From: Patescibacteria group bacterium
GTDB lineage: Bacteria > Patescibacteriota > Saccharimonadia > Saccharimonadales > CAYUUR01
Direction of reading: 5' to 3'
DNA length: 64,000 bases
NCBI GenBank assembly: GCA_052034685.1
Contig: JBPOIH010000002.1
Location: 7,738-71,737, forward strand
The notes under the pieces were generated by a model. That model ran no database searches. It was not told where the DNA came from and saw nothing but the letters and a program-made list of their open reading frames with translations. This document shows positions 18,130 through 60,401 of this stretch, one piece after another. The translations under genes and the position numbers were made by a program. The stretch's first letter is position 1, and the number at the start of each line of letters is the position of its first letter.

Positions 18130-18147
18130 GGGCCAGTGGCTCAGCTG
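18130..18147 (+). other. Orphan 18-nt copy of the tRNA-Lys 5' end (17/18 identical)
   Basis: gggccagtGgctcagctg against tRNA gggccagtAgctcagctg. It does not continue into a foldable tRNA. Confidence 0.6.
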
Positions 18148-18251
18148 CCCTGTCCGAGGCTTCAGCCGAGTAAAGTTATTAGCACCAGGTGCTCTAACCA
18201 CTCAAACTGAACTTTCGCAGATAAAACAAGCTTGCACCTTTCATACATCAT

Positions 18252-18328
18252 GGGCCAGTAGCTCAGCTGGTTAGAGCACCTGCCTCTTAAGCAGGGTGTC
18301 GAGGGTTCGAGTCCCTCCTGGCCCTCCA
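18252..18328 (+). tRNA. tRNA-Lys(CTT), CCA encoded
   Basis: Hand-folded cloverleaf: GGGCCAG/CTGGCCC acceptor, anticodon loop CTCTTAA, T-arm GAGGG-TTCGAGT-CCCTC. Confidence 0.9.
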
Positions 18329-18336
18329 ATGAAAGA

Positions 18337-18359
18337 ACCGTCCTTGTGGGCGGTTTTTT
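18337..18359 (+). terminator. Rho-independent terminator after tRNA-Lys
   Basis: accgtcc-ttgt-gggcggt followed by ttttt. Confidence 0.6.
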
Positions 18360-18385
18360 CATTGGTCGTCCGGAGCGGCTCGGTT

Positions 18386-18544
18386 CCTCGACTTGGCTGC
18401 TTTAGCAGACAAAAGTCGAGGGTTCGGTCACAAGGAGCTCTCGCAGATGCTTGCATCGAGAAAGCAACGCAGTGTGCATTGCCCCTCCTGCCTTGTTTTC
18501 ATAGACGAAGTTTCGGGCCGGCTGAAAGTCGGTCGAGTCCCTCC
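18386..18544 (+). repeat. tRNA-linked structured element E1 (a family-A unit plus a 3' fragment of a family-B unit)
   Basis: It shares about 85% identity over its first 45 nt with the element after tRNA-Pro. It contains GTCGAGGGTTCG (identical to the tRNA-Lys T-arm 5' part), CCCTCCTG-CC and TCGAGTCCCTCC (tRNA-Lys 3' part mimics). Confidence 0.65.
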
Positions 18545-18588
18545 AGTGGAGACTGCTTCACAGAGAAGTTCTTTGTTATACTAAAAAT

Positions 18589-18966
18589 ATGAAACGTGGT
18601 GCTTTTGCGGTTATTCTAAAGGGAGATAAGCTTCTATTTGTTAAACCCCCTGATTGGGTATCGCAATTTAGTGGCCATTGGAATTTTCCTGGAGGAGTTG
18701 TCGAACCTGGCGAGTCTCTTGAGGAGGGGGCAAAAAGAGAAGCTTTTGAGGAAACAAACATCGTGTGTGAAATAGAAAGCCTTTTGATGACCGATCACAA
18801 CGAAAAATTCGACACATCCATAGCAATATTTAAAGCAAAGTACATATCTGGAGAAGTCACAATTCAACCAGAGGAAATATCAGAGGCAAGATGGATGACA
18901 ATTGAAGAAGCCCTTAATGAGCCTCTCGCCTTTGACATCAAGCAGGCGTTACTAGCTTTAGCCTAA
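18589..18966 (+). CDS. NUDIX hydrolase
   Basis: Nudix box GGVVEPGESLEEGAKREAFEETN. Confidence 0.85.
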   Translation: MKRGAFAVILKGDKLLFVKPPDWVSQFSGHWNFPGGVVEPGESLEEGAKREAFEETNIVCEIESLLMTDHNEKFDTSIAIFKAKYISGEVTIQPEEISEARWMTIEEALNEPLAFDIKQALLALA

Positions 18967-19022
18967 TGTTTGCTTCAGTTTAGATATGGTTTAATCGCTA
19001 AACTCCGAGAACGAGTACAACC

Positions 19023-19080
19023 GTGCGTTGCCCCTCCGACCAAAAGTTTCGGGCCGGCTGAAAGTCGGTCGAGTCCCTCC
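19023..19080 (+). repeat. Element E2, a direct repeat of the E1 3' part
   Basis: 19044-19080 is 37/37 identical to 18508-18544. 19023-19037 matches 18474-18488 with 1 mismatch. Confidence 0.85.
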
Positions 19081-19163
19081 TTCCAACGAAAAGATCGAGT
19101 AGTATAACCCGACGACAAACCAGCTTACCGCTATGCTAAAATTACCTAAGAGACCAAACGACA

Positions 19164-19956: not shown

Positions 19957-20051
19957 GCTGCCTTAGTTCAAATAGCTCACACGATAACCCTCCAACACGG
20001 TTATGTTGAAACTCTTCCTTGTGAGGACTTTTTGTTTGATATAGTTATCCC

Positions 20052-20972: not shown

Positions 20973-21070
20973 CTTGCTGTAACGGCTGCGGTCATCCCTG
21001 CTATGACCTTCCAAAACAGTCCTGCTTAAAACAGAAGTTATTCGTATCCCCCTTTTGATATACTTCCCCC

Positions 21071-22914: not shown

Positions 22915-23084
22915 GGATCAGTTGCAAAAAACTAAGAGGCTCTGCAGACATTGACTTAATTTAGCAAGCAAAGGTCGTGGCTCTAGTTCCACACGGGCCC
23001 ATCTAGAAACCCATAACAAGTTATTTGCTAATTAGTAAAGAGTATTTTAGAATGGTTTAAACAGTAGGTAGGAGAGTTAGCTCA

Positions 23085-24008: not shown

Positions 24009-24050
24009 GAGAGTAGAGAGCGTAGATTATTATTTTGTTATACTTGGCAA

Positions 24051-25606: not shown

Positions 25607-25759
25607 ATCCCTCGGTATATTCAGGTTTTATTAACAACGTTTACTTCTTAGTTGCATTTTTGTTGCATAAAACTACAGGGGTGGATGTTGCATTATTTAC
25701 ATTTGTGTTTCATAGATGGTGCGTTATGCTTGCGAAGCAATTAAGCAAGGAGAGCACCC

Positions 25760-41086: not shown

Positions 41087-41214
41087 TCACATTGGGTTCG
41101 TAAAAGTCGTTTCTGGAGTAGAACAGCTATATCATGCCTCTATTCTACCCGAAAGTATCAATAGACACACAAAAATGCTTTTCATACACCAGATATGGTA
41201 TATAATTGGGTGCA

Positions 41215-42738
41215 ATGTCTTCGACCAACGAAAAGATTGGCAATCTTATTGCCCAGATACGACAAGAGCGCGGCCTCACGCAAGCTGAGTTCGCCCGTCG
41301 GCTCAAAACCAGTCAGTCAGCCATCAACCGCATAGAGCGTGGTGGCCAAAATCTCAGCCTAGAAACACTTGGCCGTATCAGTGACGTACTTAACAAGCAG
41401 ATTATCAGCCTTGGTGAGGGTGGTATCAACCTGCGCGTCGAAGGCGGGCAAGAACTCCATGGCGAGATTACACTCAAAACCAGCAAAAATGCTGCGGTTG
41501 CCCTTTTGTGCGCGAGCCTTCTAAACTACGGGGTTACCAAGTTCAAGTCCTTCCCGAGGATCGAAGAAGTCTATCGGATAATCGAAGTGCTGGAAAGCAT
41601 TGGCGTTAAGGTTAAGTGGCTCCCTGGCAACGACCTTGAGATTCGTCGCCCTGAGAAGCTGGAAATGGAAAAGATAAACAAAGTCTCAGCCAAAAAAACC
41701 CGCAGTGTTCTTATGTTACTTGGGCCACTCCTGCACGACTTCAAGACCTTTAATATCCCATACGCCGGCGGTTGCAAACTCGGCGAGCGGACAGTAACAC
41801 CGCACTTGTACGCTCTAGAAGAGTTCGGCATGAGCGTCATCGCCAAAACCGGCAGATACGAAGTTACCGTCAATAAACAAACTCCAAAACAACGGATTGT
41901 ACTGTATGAAACTGGTAACACTGTCACCAACAACGCCTTGATGGCAGCAGCACGAACAAATGGTACGACGACTATTCAAGCAGCAAGCGCTGACTACATG
42001 GTTCAGGACCTCTGCTTATTCCTGCAAAAGCTCGGTGTTAAGGTTAACGGCTTTGGCTCGTCAGTACTCGAAATAACTGGCGTCCCTCACATCAAAAAGA
42101 ACGTTACCTTTGCCCCTACCGAAGACCCTATTGAAGCTATGTTCTTTATATCTACCGCTGTCACAACAAATTCCAAGCTGACTATTCGGCGCGTGCCAAT
42201 TGATTGGATTGGCCTGGAACTGTTCAAGCTTAAAACCATGGGTTTGCAGTTTAAGATCGGCGAGCAATATAAAGCAACCAATGGTGTTATTAACCTGGCA
42301 GATATTGTCATCCAAAAGCATGACGGCACATTACAGGCGCCTGCTGATAAGCTTCATCCTAATCTCTGGCCAGGCATCAACCCTGACTGCATACCGTACT
42401 TTGTGCCAATTGTAGCCGTTGCCAAAGGCCGAACGCTCATCCACGACTGGATGTTTGAAAACCGCGCTATTTATTACACAGAGATGTCAAAGATTGGCGT
42501 CAACATAGAACTGGCAGACCCACACCGCGTGTACATTAATGGTCCGACTAAATTCACCCATGCTGATGTTGTCTCGCCACCTGCACTTCGACCCGCCAGC
42601 TTACTCCTCATTGGCATGCTCGCAGCCGAAGGGACTTCGATGCTGCGCAATGTATATACCATCAACCGAGGCTACGAAGACCTGGCGGAACGCCTTAATT
42701 CACTTGGCGCTAAGATTACCGTCCTACACGAACTGTAG
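41215..42738 (+). CDS. murA: UDP-N-acetylglucosamine 1-carboxyvinyltransferase with an N-terminal XRE-type HTH domain
   Basis: aa 1-65 (IGNLIAQIRQERGLTQAEFARRLKTSQSAINRIERG) form an HTH. The rest is MurA (GEITLKTSKNAA, YAGGCKLGERTV). Confidence 0.9.
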   Translation: MSSTNEKIGNLIAQIRQERGLTQAEFARRLKTSQSAINRIERGGQNLSLETLGRISDVLNKQIISLGEGGINLRVEGGQELHGEITLKTSKNAAVALLCASLLNYGVTKFKSFPRIEEVYRIIEVLESIGVKVKWLPGNDLEIRRPEKLEMEKINKVSAKKTRSVLMLLGPLLHDFKTFNIPYAGGCKLGERTVTPHLYALEEFGMSVIAKTGRYEVTVNKQTPKQRIVLYETGNTVTNNALMAAARTNGTTTIQAASADYMVQDLCLFLQKLGVKVNGFGSSVLEITGVPHIKKNVTFAPTEDPIEAMFFISTAVTTNSKLTIRRVPIDWIGLELFKLKTMGLQFKIGEQYKATNGVINLADIVIQKHDGTLQAPADKLHPNLWPGINPDCIPYFVPIVAVAKGRTLIHDWMFENRAIYYTEMSKIGVNIELADPHRVYINGPTKFTHADVVSPPALRPASLLLIGMLAAEGTSMLRNVYTINRGYEDLAERLNSLGAKITVLHEL

Positions 42739-44895: not shown

Positions 44896-44957
44896 AGTAG
44901 CGCTATGGGGCAACGGTGCTGCGCCACTTACTCGAAGCGAGCTTCTGCGTGAGGTTT

Positions 44958-45080
44958 ATGGGGATCGGTCACGTTCCGCGACCCCGAAACTTCATCTTTG
45001 AAAACAAGTTTTCAAGAGAAGGTTTCCTTGCAAAATGCCATCAGGCATTTTTCACCCACGACAGTCGTGGGTTCGTTCAC
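44958..45080 (-). repeat. tRNA-linked structured element E3 (family B), downstream of tRNA-His
   Basis: Five hairpins whose arms covary with the copy at 48321..48470. It ends with GATCCCCAT, identical to the tRNA-His T-loop/T-stem 3' part. Confidence 0.65.
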
Positions 45081-45087
45081 TATTCAG

Positions 45088-45131
45088 CCCCAAATAAAAA
45101 CGACCCCATTTGGGATCATTTTTATTTGGGG
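45088..45131. terminator. Long inverted repeat abutting the tRNA-His 3' end
   Basis: ccccaaataaaaa...tttttatttgggg. Confidence 0.5.
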
Positions 45132-48292: not shown

Positions 48293-48320
48293 AAAGTAAT
48301 CATATCAAACAAATGAGTAA

Positions 48321-48470
48321 CAGGGATTCGACCTACCTTTGGCAGGCCCAGAACTTCTGCCATGACAACAAGTTGTCGGGTGAAGATTCTCTTGCAAACT
48401 GCAACCGGGCAGCTTTCACCCCGACCCTTGGGGTCGGGAGCTCGAACCACTTAGATAGACAACTCAAAAA
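48321..48470 (-). repeat. tRNA-linked structured element E4 (family B)
   Basis: Homologous to 44958..45080 with compensatory hairpin changes. It ends with TCGAATCCCTG (tRNA-Arg(TCT) has TCGAATCCTGC). Confidence 0.65.
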
Positions 48471-48769: not shown

Positions 48770-48798
48770 AAAAGACCTCTCTAGCGAAGAGGTCTTTT
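48770..48798. terminator. Hairpin after tRNA-Arg(TCT)
   Basis: aaaagacctct-ctagcga-agaggtctttt. Confidence 0.55.
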
Positions 48799-48812
48799 AA
48801 TCATAAGCAAAT

Positions 48813-48889
48813 TGGTGCCCCGGGCAGGATTCGAACCTGCGACCTTGAGCTTAGAAGTCTCCTGCTCTATCCAGCTGAGCTACCAGGGC
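48813..48889 (-). tRNA. tRNA-Arg(TCT), CCA encoded
   Basis: Hand-folded: GCCCTGG/CCGGGGC acceptor, loop CTTCTAA, T-arm GCAGG-TTCGAAT-CCTGC. The anticodon stem has two mismatched end pairs. Confidence 0.8.
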
Positions 48890-48900
48890 ACACCGCCGCT

Positions 48901-48930
48901 ATTATACCTTCACTAGTGCTATTCTTGCAA
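48901..48930 (-). promoter_or_regulatory. Promoter of tRNA-Arg(TCT)
   Basis: On the minus strand: TTGCAA-18 nt-TATAAT, 11 nt upstream of the tRNA 5' end. Confidence 0.5.
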
Positions 48931-49142
48931 AACAGAGGTTATATTCCTCATAGGACTGCCGCACCTTCAGGCAGCAACAGCGCGCAGCTGGCTGGCCGCA
49001 AAGTGCCTATCTTCTGTCAGCGTAGCTTTGGCTACACTTCCATAATCTAATCTCTTTTCGGCTCAGCCATCCCTCACCCTGTTATCTACCAGAAAATACG
49101 GAAGTCCTATATACTACTAAGCATAAACGGAAACCAATTATT

Positions 49143-50776: not shown

Positions 50777-50827
50777 AGTGCAATTATAACAAAAGACGTC
50801 GGGAAGGACGTCTTTGTGACTGGCTCG

Positions 50828-50993
50828 TGGTGCGGGTGGAGAGACTATCTGATAAATCAGATGCACCGGCAGCGCATGCTCGGAGCAAGCTCCTGTGCGT
50901 GCACTTTGTCTTCGAACTCGTGCTACGCCCAGTAGAGTTCGATTACTTGTTCACATACCAATCCTTTACTCTCGCGCAGCGAGAACAAAGGAT
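50828..50993 (-). repeat. tRNA-linked structured element E6 (family A-like), ending in an exact 17-nt copy of the tRNA-Gly 3' end
   Basis: 50828-50844 is identical to 50994-51010 (tggtgcgggtggagaga). Internal TCGAACTC...GAGTTCGA is an inverted copy of the T-arm, and there is a GTGCAT box. Confidence 0.7.
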
Positions 50994-60227: not shown

Positions 60228-60241
60228 TGATCTAGTAAAGT

Positions 60242-60345
60242 TGGGTGAAAGGGCAATGCACATGAATCTGTGCGCCGAGCATCTCGGGCAACAGACTCAT
60301 GACCGAACCTGCGACTTTCGTCAGCTAAAGCTGCCGAGTCGAAGG
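60242..60345 (-). repeat. tRNA-linked structured element E5 (family A), downstream of tRNA-Pro
   Basis: Its first 45 nt are about 85% identical to E1. It contains GTCGCAGGTTCG and ends in CCTTTCACCC, both matching tRNA-Pro. Confidence 0.65.
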
Positions 60346-60370
60346 CTCGAGACTTAACTCTTGACCAATC

Positions 60371-60391
60371 AAAAAGCCCACATTGCTGTGG
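60371..60391 (-). terminator. Short terminator after tRNA-Pro
   Basis: On the minus strand: tccaca-gcaa-tgtggg followed by cttttt. Confidence 0.4.
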
Positions 60392-60401
60392 ACTCTTTGA
60401 T

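Follow-up and report, generated by a model that had tools for sequence, protein, structure and literature searches.

The region downstream of the tRNA-Lys(CTT) gene in the 64,000-nt stretch analysed here (a Patescibacteria group bacterium of the Saccharimonadia, GenBank assembly GCA_052034685.1, contig JBPOIH010000002.1, positions 7,738 to 71,737; hereafter the window, meaning the whole 64-kb stretch) is probably a tRNA-anchored flexible array of Saccharibacteria, in which short non-coding units and gene cassettes, among them one carrying a NUDIX hydrolase gene, have been inserted serially and site-specifically at the segment running from the T-loop to the CCA end of the tRNA gene. Documented below are the anatomy of this flank, a layout that returns at five other tRNAs, the conserved structure of the insert, and insertion and cargo polymorphisms among relatives. 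The window is bacterial; its relatives carry Saccharibacteria or Patescibacteria annotation, and its MurD, MurI, FolD and MurA proteins score well under the respective equivalog cut-offs.

The anchor of the array, tRNA-Lys(CTT) (18252-18328, + strand), is intact with an encoded CCA (ARAGORN; Rfam, 72 bits) and carries, from 18307, the first of three window copies of TCGAGTCCCTCC, the others lying at 18533 and 19069 (chance expectation 0.15). Its GTCGAGGGTTCG, at 18298, recurs at 18415, and the 37-mer AAGTTTCGGGCCGGCTGAAAGTCGGTCGAGTCCCTCC occurs exactly twice, at 18508-18544 (copy A, + strand) and 19044-19080 (copy B, + strand), with a spacing of 536 nt around the 378-nt NUDIX gene. No third copy exists in the window even at 3 mismatches (chance expectation 0.00), and chance predicts none of the tRNA-derived 12-mers and no exact 37-nt pair. 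In addition, a box, GTGCRTTGCCCCTCC, at 18474 returns at 19023-19037 (+ strand) as GTGCGTTGCCCCTCC, matching 18474-18488 at 14 of 15 positions. An initial annotation, made from the letters alone, had placed the tRNA gene, the 12-mers, the 37-nt pair around the NUDIX gene and the recurring GTGC(A/G) box correctly.

Each 37-mer consists of the final 25 nt of a structured insert, termed type A, and 12 nt of tRNA T-loop and T-stem, terminates exactly 10 nt past the last hairpin of that insert (P3), and runs into a tRNA 3' end with an internal deletion. In copy A the next base, A, completes ...CCCTCC/A, which is read as the tRNA 3' end minus the 9 nt between its two CCCTCC motifs because the tRNA contains CCCTCC twice, in the T-stem and at the acceptor end. 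Copy B and its continuation (19044-19086, + strand), a displaced tRNA-Lys 3' end, read ...CCCTCCT/TCCAACGAAAAG (...CCCTCCT/TCCAA), equivalent to the tRNA end (CCCTCCTGGCCCTCCAATGAAAG) without GGCCC, and are followed by ACGAAAAG, which also trails a copy of the tRNA-Lys end in L006 (L001 to L088 being labels of comparison loci in relatives).

Between the tRNA gene and copy A, the flank is assembled from partial copies of the tRNA 3' part in the order direct, inverted, direct, split in the T-loop by structured inserts. It opens with T1, a long terminator-like hairpin (18326-18365, + strand) with 18-nt arms that are 89% complementary, the left arm starting with the CCA of the tRNA itself. A simple promoter and terminator scan overlooked T1 because its T-run lies within the extended stem; the scan returned no promoter-like site and a single terminator-like match (19094-19113, - strand), which does not exceed the shuffle mean of 1.4. 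T1 gives way to a decayed copy of the 3' part of tRNA-Lys in inverted orientation, comprising CCA, acceptor 3' strand, T-arm and variable loop (18363-18392, - strand; z=3.2). The junction of this inverted copy with the second direct copy, which covers tRNA positions ~46-57, is formed by the hairpin CCTCGACTT-(GGCTGCTTTAGCAGAC)-AAGTCGAGG running into GTCGAGGGTTCG (18386-18426, + strand). As the initial annotation had proposed, the 3' arm of this hairpin leads into the tRNA-identical 12-mer; folding confirmed the hairpin at 18386-18421, and at positions 18413-18426 the variable loop and T-stem 5' strand appear in direct orientation for the second time, ending in GGTTCG. A homologue of this hairpin follows tRNA-Pro, with compensatory changes.

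The T-loop of the second direct copy is interrupted by an insert of 55 nt (18427-18481, + strand), also anticipated by that annotation and designated type B (GTCACAAGG...GTGCATTG), with 80% column identity to the insert behind tRNA-Pro. There follow CCCCTCCTGCC, a remnant of the tRNA-Lys T-stem 3' strand and acceptor lacking one G (18482-18492, + strand), and the 3' portion of a type A module (18493-18532, + strand) comprising the P2 3' strand and the P3 hairpin GGCCGGC-TGAAA-GTCGGTC, its 5' half being gone. Comparison with full modules identifies 18493-18532 as the 3' two-fifths of the type A insert, and the covariance model gives a partial match at 18460-18534 (14.7 bits). The elements previously described as T-arm mimics are true partial tRNA copies (direct, inverted, direct) with conserved structured inserts. 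As a separate observation, the 5' side of tRNA-Lys likewise bears direct and inverted fragments 50-120 nt before the intact gene, namely the first 18 nt of the tRNA in direct orientation (18130-18147, + strand; 17/18 identical) and an inverted segment of D-arm and anticodon stem, TGGTTAGAGCACCTG (18186-18200, - strand; 15/15).

With its three hairpins (P1-P3) and ~89 nt, the type A insert forms a discrete unit that is conserved. A covariance model made from 8 copies detected nothing but full copies (80-102 bits) and, with scores of 12-15 bits, the two partial copies at the window tRNA-Lys. In a covariation test on 11 distinct copies, 95.3% of cells were paired and 26 of the 35 pairs had changed on both sides, values that none of 500 shuffles matched, and pairing fell to 30-44% when the partners were slid. 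A G.U pair in the last hairpin is retained by 10 of the 11 copies, which assigns the structure to the tRNA-sense strand, whether as RNA or as single-stranded DNA. The insert always replaces the T-loop TT (positions 54-55), taking out 1-2 nt and leaving no short duplication; in L004 it also interrupts, at positions 26/27 and 47/48, two truncated tRNA-Lys copies that lie upstream and are longer than the window fragments, and one copy is nested within the last hairpin of another in L081. Sequence similarity among the copies is independent of tRNA type, the window copy at tRNA-His sharing 82% and 78% identity with two tRNA-Lys copies, and tRNA-Lys copies from the same locus in different genomes being only 52-69% identical. 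With Rfam 15, tRNA was the only family detected in the window at gathering thresholds, and matches at E<=10 in the tRNA-Lys and tRNA-His regions were tRNAs and noise.

Several known classes of element were considered for this module and rejected. Group I introns of tRNA genes possess a catalytic core of at least 200 nt and occupy the anticodon loop of an otherwise complete tRNA; those in tRNA genes of the same phylum are structured insertions too, but they lie in the anticodon loop (35/36) of functional tRNAs and are self-splicing, whereas here an 89-nt element sits in the T-loop of truncated, redundant copies lacking the 5' half, beside an intact gene and without any Intron_gpI match. Miniature inverted-repeat transposable elements are recognised by terminal inverted repeats and a short target-site duplication, and the two ends of the module, GTGARAA... 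and ...GTGACC or GTCGGTC, do not form such a repeat. A riboswitch in the 5' untranslated region of the NUDIX gene was dismissed, the module also standing behind tRNA-His, where it faces a convergent open reading frame (ORF), and occurring without NUDIX. Likewise, the P3 3' strand is not a decayed T-stem, identical P3 variants being found with different tRNAs.

The architecture seen behind tRNA-Lys is repeated elsewhere in the window, five of whose six tRNA genes seed such structures. The shared order comprises T1, an inverted copy of the tRNA 3' part, a loop, a direct T-stem 5' strand, a structured insert, and the 3' part of the T-loop with the T-stem 3' strand (plus acceptor and CCA). This order directly follows tRNA-His, tRNA-Pro and tRNA-Gly, a fourth copy lies 370 nt after tRNA-Arg(TCT), and in all cases the window unit is built from its cognate tRNA. 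T1-like architecture also follows tRNA-His, tRNA-Pro and tRNA-Arg(TCG). The inverted copies are significant at tRNA-Lys, tRNA-His (z 6.9) and tRNA-Pro (4.8), equivalents exist in L004 (5.8) and L001 (5.4), and none was found after the two window tRNA-Arg genes. Three insert families can be distinguished, namely A (at Lys, His and Arg(TCT), and at Gln in L077), B (Lys and Pro) and C (Gly, and His in L085); between Lys and Pro the type B inserts keep their 80% column identity while the T-arm halves around them are swapped.

The unit after tRNA-His (44956-45126, - strand) contains T1, the inverted tRNA-His 3' copy, GTCGTGG, a full type A module (44966-45055; 99.2 bits) and GATCCCCATA. After tRNA-Pro, a type B insert (about 60240-60330) lies between tRNA-Pro T-arm halves (unit 60236-60401, - strand; fold z=-5.3), and after tRNA-Gly a unit with a type C insert (50826-50993, - strand) ends in TCTCTCCACCCGCACCA, an exact 17-nt match to the tRNA-Gly 3' end, CCA included. 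The remaining unit (48318-48452, - strand) holds a full type A module (48330-48419; 87.2 bits) flanked by T-arm halves of the tRNA-Arg(TCT) allele of L085 and L087, and is set off from the window tRNA-Arg(TCT) by 362 nt that include a small ORF. It is regarded as derived from tRNA-Arg(TCT) because the L085/L087 allele has exactly that T-arm, with the unit directly behind it; the same allele ruled out a misplaced tRNA-Gln derivative, which the likeness to L077 had suggested.

Further observations concern tRNA-Arg(TCT) itself. A 146-nt aligned stretch including this gene (window 48812-48948, L085 3099-3244) is only 81.5% identical, and differences extend gene-wide, including the anticodon stem and T-stem, despite 94% identity of PurD. 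The T-arm of the old allele remains only in the 48.4-kb unit; the whole tRNA appears to have been swapped along with a cassette. In L085 (3400-3455) and L087 (8580-8620), a hairpin of ~27-28 nt (GTCCGCCCTGTCTGG(C)AGACAGGCGGGC) splits the displaced tRNA-Arg(TCT) 3' end after type A, between CCCT and CTCCCGGGGTACCA; it is another structured insertion, smaller than the others, and lies in the T-stem 3' strand. The tRNA promoters of the window have TATAAT followed by CCTCTGTT in common.

Comparison with relatives, which the initial annotation had called for, drew on L001 and L004 from repeat-arm scans (one genome, one metagenome) and on L005-L007 and L077-L088 found through NUDIX or PurD homologues. 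Among the loci with the same upstream synteny as the window (response regulators, MurD, MurI, FolD, tRNA-Lys), the content behind the tRNA varies. In L001, NUDIX is absent and the unit ends, after the same arm, in the full 22-nt tRNA end TCGAGTCCCTCCTGGCCCTCCA; in L004, NUDIX directly follows the first repeat unit, whose 37-mer is identical to that of the window; in L081-84 (L081 being from GCA_025453305.1), it lies between two full-length units, directly after the first, and the second carries nested modules. The 37-mers of the window are fragments of the kind of unit seen full-length in L081-84. In L005 the unit occurs twice with two other genes between, NUDIX being the third gene, after the second copy, and in L006 it is the sixth. 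Copies of the tRNA-Lys end number seven in L005 and four in L006, mostly at gene junctions. Furthermore, the tRNA-Lys of L005 has a different T-arm, and the L005 units match that T-arm. The earlier proposal of serial insertion at the T-loop with NUDIX as cargo is consequently supported by the relatives, with the amendment that the 37-mers belong to the flanking non-coding units rather than to the NUDIX cassette.

Insertion of a single unit is seen most directly in L085 (GCA_964448075.1), whose PurD is 94% identical to that of the window. Its tRNA-His has one extra type C unit of 156 nt, bounded by a 19-nt duplication of the tRNA-His 3' end (ATCCCCATAGCTCGCCCCA) that starts in the T-loop, and the T1 of the window type now stands behind the displaced copy because the extra unit brings its own T1. 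A duplication that begins within the T-loop together with an outward-pushed T1 is the signature of attL and attR, with the newest unit next to the tRNA, and an insertion that restores the tRNA while displacing its old end is the classical signature of tRNA-targeting site-specific recombination. At tRNA-Arg(TCT), the 362 nt found in the window contrast with 45 nt in L085, the unit lying directly after the tRNA in L085 and L087. Direct repeats of the tRNA 3' end measure 22 nt in L001, 20 nt in L005, 19 nt at tRNA-His of L085 and 17 nt at the window tRNA-Gly, that of the window tRNA-Lys being 12-13 nt plus deletion derivatives. Different cargo, or presence and absence, at the same tRNA site was thus observed among relatives, close relatives differing by whole units and cassettes at exactly the tRNA-seeded points.

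These comparisons bear on a purely local origin, in which template switching at the terminator and T-arm hairpins, followed by unequal crossing-over or slippage that duplicated the 37-mer, would have produced the structure without any mobile element. The direct/inverted/direct order with hairpins at both junctions is a pattern of fold-back template switching, no recombinase was found among the about 70 window ORFs, and the two 37-mers are 100% identical, the boxes that precede them, by 21 nt in copy A and by 7 nt in copy B, matching at 14 of 15 positions. A local process is nonetheless unlikely. The terminators of the units differ from those that they displaced (T1a against T1b in L085, T1 against the junction trailer R in L005), and the proximal copy was therefore not made from the trailer of the locus; six different tRNAs and several genera share the three insert families; in L081 the two units around NUDIX resemble each other at only about 60%; and the 37-mer is identical in L004 although NUDIX there is 73% identical.

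The conservation of the 37-mer deserves separate consideration. It occurs only at tRNA-Lys loci, as judged from the window and the repeat-arm scans, which speaks against the genome-wide, terminator-like repeat that had been considered as an alternative at the outset. In L001, 31 of 32 positions are identical while FolD is 67% identical at the DNA level; as the sequence is also unchanged in L004, the perfect identity of the two window copies is probably due to constraint, either alone or in addition to recency. Metagenome matches in L002 and L003 were discarded as chance, having no similarity to the 37-mer flanks and no tRNA gene on the contig. A phage origin was likewise discarded: 17-23 kb gave no megablast match, viral contigs contain neither the 37-mer nor the 22-nt core, and 69 viral matches to a gapped module pattern are considered chance because none was confirmed by the covariance model.

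In an alternative reading, the units would be functional structured RNAs under selection, for example a small RNA from the tRNA trailer, a signal for processing or stability, or an element regulating either the tRNA or the gene behind it, with gene turnover around them being incidental. The very strong covariation, the retention of the G.U pair on the tRNA-sense strand only, the far higher conservation of the 37-mer than of the flanking genes, and the position of both window 37-mers upstream of + strand genes are compatible with such a role. On the other hand, the units follow a strong terminator-like hairpin with no promoter-like site found, they are not consistently ahead of co-directional genes (the tRNA-His unit faces the convergent ORF), their nesting and presence or absence behave like insertions, they have no Rfam match, and the window tRNA-Lys copies have lost half the module with the locus otherwise intact. 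Taken together, we judge a selected RNA function to be a rather improbable explanation of the whole.

The NUDIX gene itself (18589-18966, + strand; 378 nt, 125 aa; PF00293, E=1e-21) is read as the cargo of a one-gene cassette, and an exact-sequence look-up of its protein returned no record. The left end of the cassette (18545-18588, + strand) begins at the tRNA-end copy and consists of a decayed hairpin and TTTGTTATACT (18572-18582), which resembles an extended -10 motif and stands 6 nt ahead of the ATG. This motif is kept in L005, L006 and L081 as TTTGTTATACT or TTTGCTATACT, and L004 has TATTGTATAGT; in L077 the homologous left end adjoins a tRNA-Gln-like 3' fragment. In relatives the right end reads stop codon, AGTTGCRAC, N10 (~10 nt) and CTGGCCCTCCA. 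Two genes for Y1 transposases (IS200/IS605-type, PF01797, 142-145 aa) were also noted less than 1 kb from NUDIX homologues, at 6314-6742 in L007 and 7751-8188 in L077, the latter 260 nt from the tRNA-Gln unit.

Beyond copy B, an array of genes, all on the + strand, continues for ~11 kb to about 29.5 kb (APH kinase, DUF402, AAA_18, HAD phosphatase, DUF218, Ham1, DHODH and others), and domain calls bear out the same-strand run of accessory-type genes recorded in the initial annotation. Decayed tRNA-Lys 3' ends mark two of its junctions, CCCTCCAA after a 143-aa ORF (19988-19995, + strand), followed by an R motif (ACACGGTTATGTTGAAAC, hairpin, TTTTGTTTGATATAGT), and CCTTCCAA after the APH kinase gene (21007-21014, + strand), likewise followed by an R motif. 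Four of the five occurrences of CC[CT]TCCAA in the window are + strand junctions between 18.3 and 21.0 kb with an R motif after them. The R motif, which in L005 takes the form ATACGCTTATGCTTAAAAC, a hairpin and then TTTTG-TATA-T, is the usual trailer of tRNA-Lys ends there.

The sequence TTTTG(T/A/C)TATA(C/G/A)T lies 5-15 nt before the start codon, with a hairpin ahead, at nearly every cassette start (window 18572-18582, 20036-20046, 21054-21064 and 24035-24045; L005 junctions), and looks like a shared terminator and extended -10 promoter with very short leaders. A trailer A(T/C)ACG(C/G)TTATG(C/T)T(T/G)AAA(A)C after the tRNA end is common to several genomes and tRNAs (L005 5340-5360, 5932-5950 and 8800-8818; window 19996-20013, and 48790-48811 on the - strand after tRNA-Arg(TCT)). 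The TTATG(C/T)TTAAA of the R motif may resemble the XerD-binding arm of dif (TTATGTTAAAT), and together with the 11-nt tRNA end and a 6-nt spacer it would make an 11-6-11 layout.

In the favoured reading, serial insertion at the tRNA, the T-loop-to-CCA segment would act as the attachment core, one copy being left behind per event; incoming DNA would restore the tRNA and displace its old 3' end, and the array would thereby grow from the tRNA outward. Non-coding units of ~150-230 bp would contribute a replacement tRNA 3' end, T1, the inverted 3' copy, the variable loop and T-stem 5' strand in direct orientation, and a type A, B or C insert in the T-loop, before reaching the displaced old tRNA 3' end. 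Cassettes of one or a few genes, NUDIX being one, would carry their own terminator and promoter on the left, and a short motif and a copy of the tRNA 3' end on the right. The window NUDIX would accordingly have come to lie between two non-coding units that are both mostly lost, their surviving right ends being the 37-mers. The layout suggests conservative site-specific recombination of the tyrosine-recombinase type, with the enzyme presumably encoded elsewhere and acting in trans, and the units may excise as circles.

Several observations weigh against this reading. Integrase, transposase and Cas1 domains were not detected in about 70 window ORFs (Pfam, NCBIfam), nor was a recombinase among the tRNA-Lys-locus gene calls of L005, L006 and L081-84 (Pfam), and the viral contigs searched contained no free or viral copy of the units. 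The inverted tRNA copy and the insert between the T-arm halves are foreign to ordinary attP and attR sites. Classical double-strand att arms need no single-stranded structure, and the covariation and the conserved G.U pair point to one, whether of RNA or of single-stranded DNA. Moreover, cassette junctions also repeat ~50 nt to the right of the core (the R motif), which core-only recombination does not predict, and the 37-mers are fully identical amid decayed surroundings, a state that local duplication or gene conversion could produce.

A variant that would make sense of the inverted copy, the insert at the crossover, the lack of a cis recombinase and the R trailer is that the non-coding units belong to a new class of miniature integrative elements that are active as folded single strands. 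Here the direct tRNA 3' part and the T1 left arm would pair with the T1 right arm and the inverted tRNA copy, and the resulting rod would mimic the tRNA-gene duplex from the variable loop to the terminator, with the ~89-nt module protruding exactly where crossover would take place in the T-loop. Both mimic and cassettes would then be recombined with tRNA genes by a tyrosine recombinase of the host, or one acting in trans, that resembles Xer or an integron integrase. We regard this folded form as a possible but doubtful elaboration. On an equal footing stands the idea that the module is itself a new mobile structured element targeting T-loops, which one nested copy and the copies at tRNA positions 26/27 and 47/48 in L004 suggest.

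Single-strand transposition of the Y1/HUH type, by which non-autonomous, IS200/IS605-like hairpin units would be inserted 3' of a short tRNA-end target, has to be weighed against the same structural features. Elements derived from IS200/IS605 bear similar subterminal hairpins at both ends and insert 3' of a 4-5-nt target without target duplication. The units share strand specificity, hairpins near their ends and the lack of terminal inverted repeats; the stop of both 37-mers 10 nt beyond P3, the hairpin about 17 nt from the junction at cassette left ends, and the Y1_Tnp genes (PF01797) beside NUDIX homologues in L007 and L077 are further points of agreement. However, IS200/IS605 needs only the 4-5-nt target and accounts neither for 17-22-nt duplications nor for inverted target copies, the left (P1) and right (P3) hairpins are dissimilar, no Y1 gene was found in the window or the tRNA-Lys loci, and those of L007 and L077 may be ordinary insertion sequences. 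This route is considered highly unlikely.

Among known systems, integrase islands at tRNA T-loops repeat the segment from the T-loop to the 3' end, restore the tRNA, displace the old end and form tandem arrays, and a survey by Williams in 2002 reportedly sorted tRNA integration sites into sublocation classes. The units share with such islands, and with their integrase-less derivatives, the cis-mobilizable elements (CIMEs), the direct repeat from T-loop to 3' end, the restored tRNA, the displaced end and tandem accretion, and differ from them in having no cis integrase at the loci examined and in being far smaller than known CIMEs. We know of no counterpart among integrase islands to the direct/inverted/direct tRNA copies with a structured T-loop insert.

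Integrons offer a second parallel, with same-strand, mostly single-gene cassettes whose order varies between relatives and junctions conserved in structure more than in sequence; the pairing is strand-specific and imperfect, which would suit a folded single strand, the form in which attC sites recombine. Here, in contrast to integrons, each cassette has its own promoter- and terminator-like sequences and the recombination core is the tRNA 3' end. Neither intI nor attI was found, the scanned ORFs giving no Phage_integrase-type match, and inspection of the junctions by eye only, with no attC model, revealed no R''/R' boxes (RYYYAAC/GTTRRRY); the junctions display AGTTGCRAC, the tRNA end and the R motif.

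Casposons insert at the 3' end of a tRNA gene with a 14-15-bp target duplication (PMC5137440). Considered together with CRISPR-type leader-proximal insertion and its repeat duplication, they resemble the present arrays in the tRNA 3' end target, the duplication and growth at one pole, and the differences are that no Cas1 or casposase domain was detected in the scanned ORFs and that the duplications here are 11-22 nt with unit-borne terminators. In the tRNA-seeded islands and tycheposons of Prochlorococcus, the full tRNA is proximal and partial tRNA copies are scattered between insertions (Hackl et al., bioRxiv 10.1101/2020.12.28.424599). These islands have in common with the present arrays the proximal tRNA, the partial copies, the newest material at the tRNA, and small, streamlined genomes with few classical mobile elements. 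Tycheposons, however, span kilobases and encode tyrosine or serine recombinases and replication genes, whereas the units here are 150-230-bp non-coding or single-gene units with no recombinase found, and each non-coding unit, unlike tycheposons, has an inverted tRNA copy and a conserved structured T-loop insert.

The array thus belongs to a known kind, the tRNA-anchored flexible islands with partial-tRNA repeats, and differs from it in its miniature non-coding units, direct/inverted/direct layout, three families of structured T-loop inserts, single-gene cassettes and Patescibacteria host; no description of this phenomenon was found in the searchable literature. Saccharibacteria and other Patescibacteria are epibiotic, with genomes of roughly 1 Mb and few recognised mobile elements, and to our knowledge their gain and exchange of accessory genes is poorly understood. 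If tRNAs serve as polar landing pads, they would provide a concrete mechanism for the flexible genes of these bacteria (nucleotide house-cleaning enzymes, kinases, toxin-antitoxin pairs), and if the folded strand were the active form, Patescibacteria would have an integron-like cassette system anchored on tRNAs. The ~89-nt module merits description whatever its role, having strong covariation and no Rfam family. On the practical level, partial tRNA copies can mislead tRNA annotation and the assembly of metagenome-assembled genomes, and the conserved cores are possible markers for flexible regions in Patescibacteria genomes.

Minor observations complete the description of the window. Two rather long intergenic regions farther into the array contain more debris: at 22915-23084 a stop codon is followed by AGTTGCAAA, and there is a T-arm fragment resembling that of tRNA-His (GGTCGTGGCTCTAGTTCCAC); at 25607-25759 three GTTGCAT repeats accompany GTTTCATAGATGGTGCGTTATGCTTGCG, in which module-, box- and trailer-like pieces are combined. 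Finally, MurA (UDP-GlcNAc 1-carboxyvinyltransferase; 41206-42738) has an N-terminal Xre-type helix-turn-helix at residues about 10-65, and the same fusion of HTH_3 and EPSP_synthase (507 aa) is also called in L085, L086 and L087.

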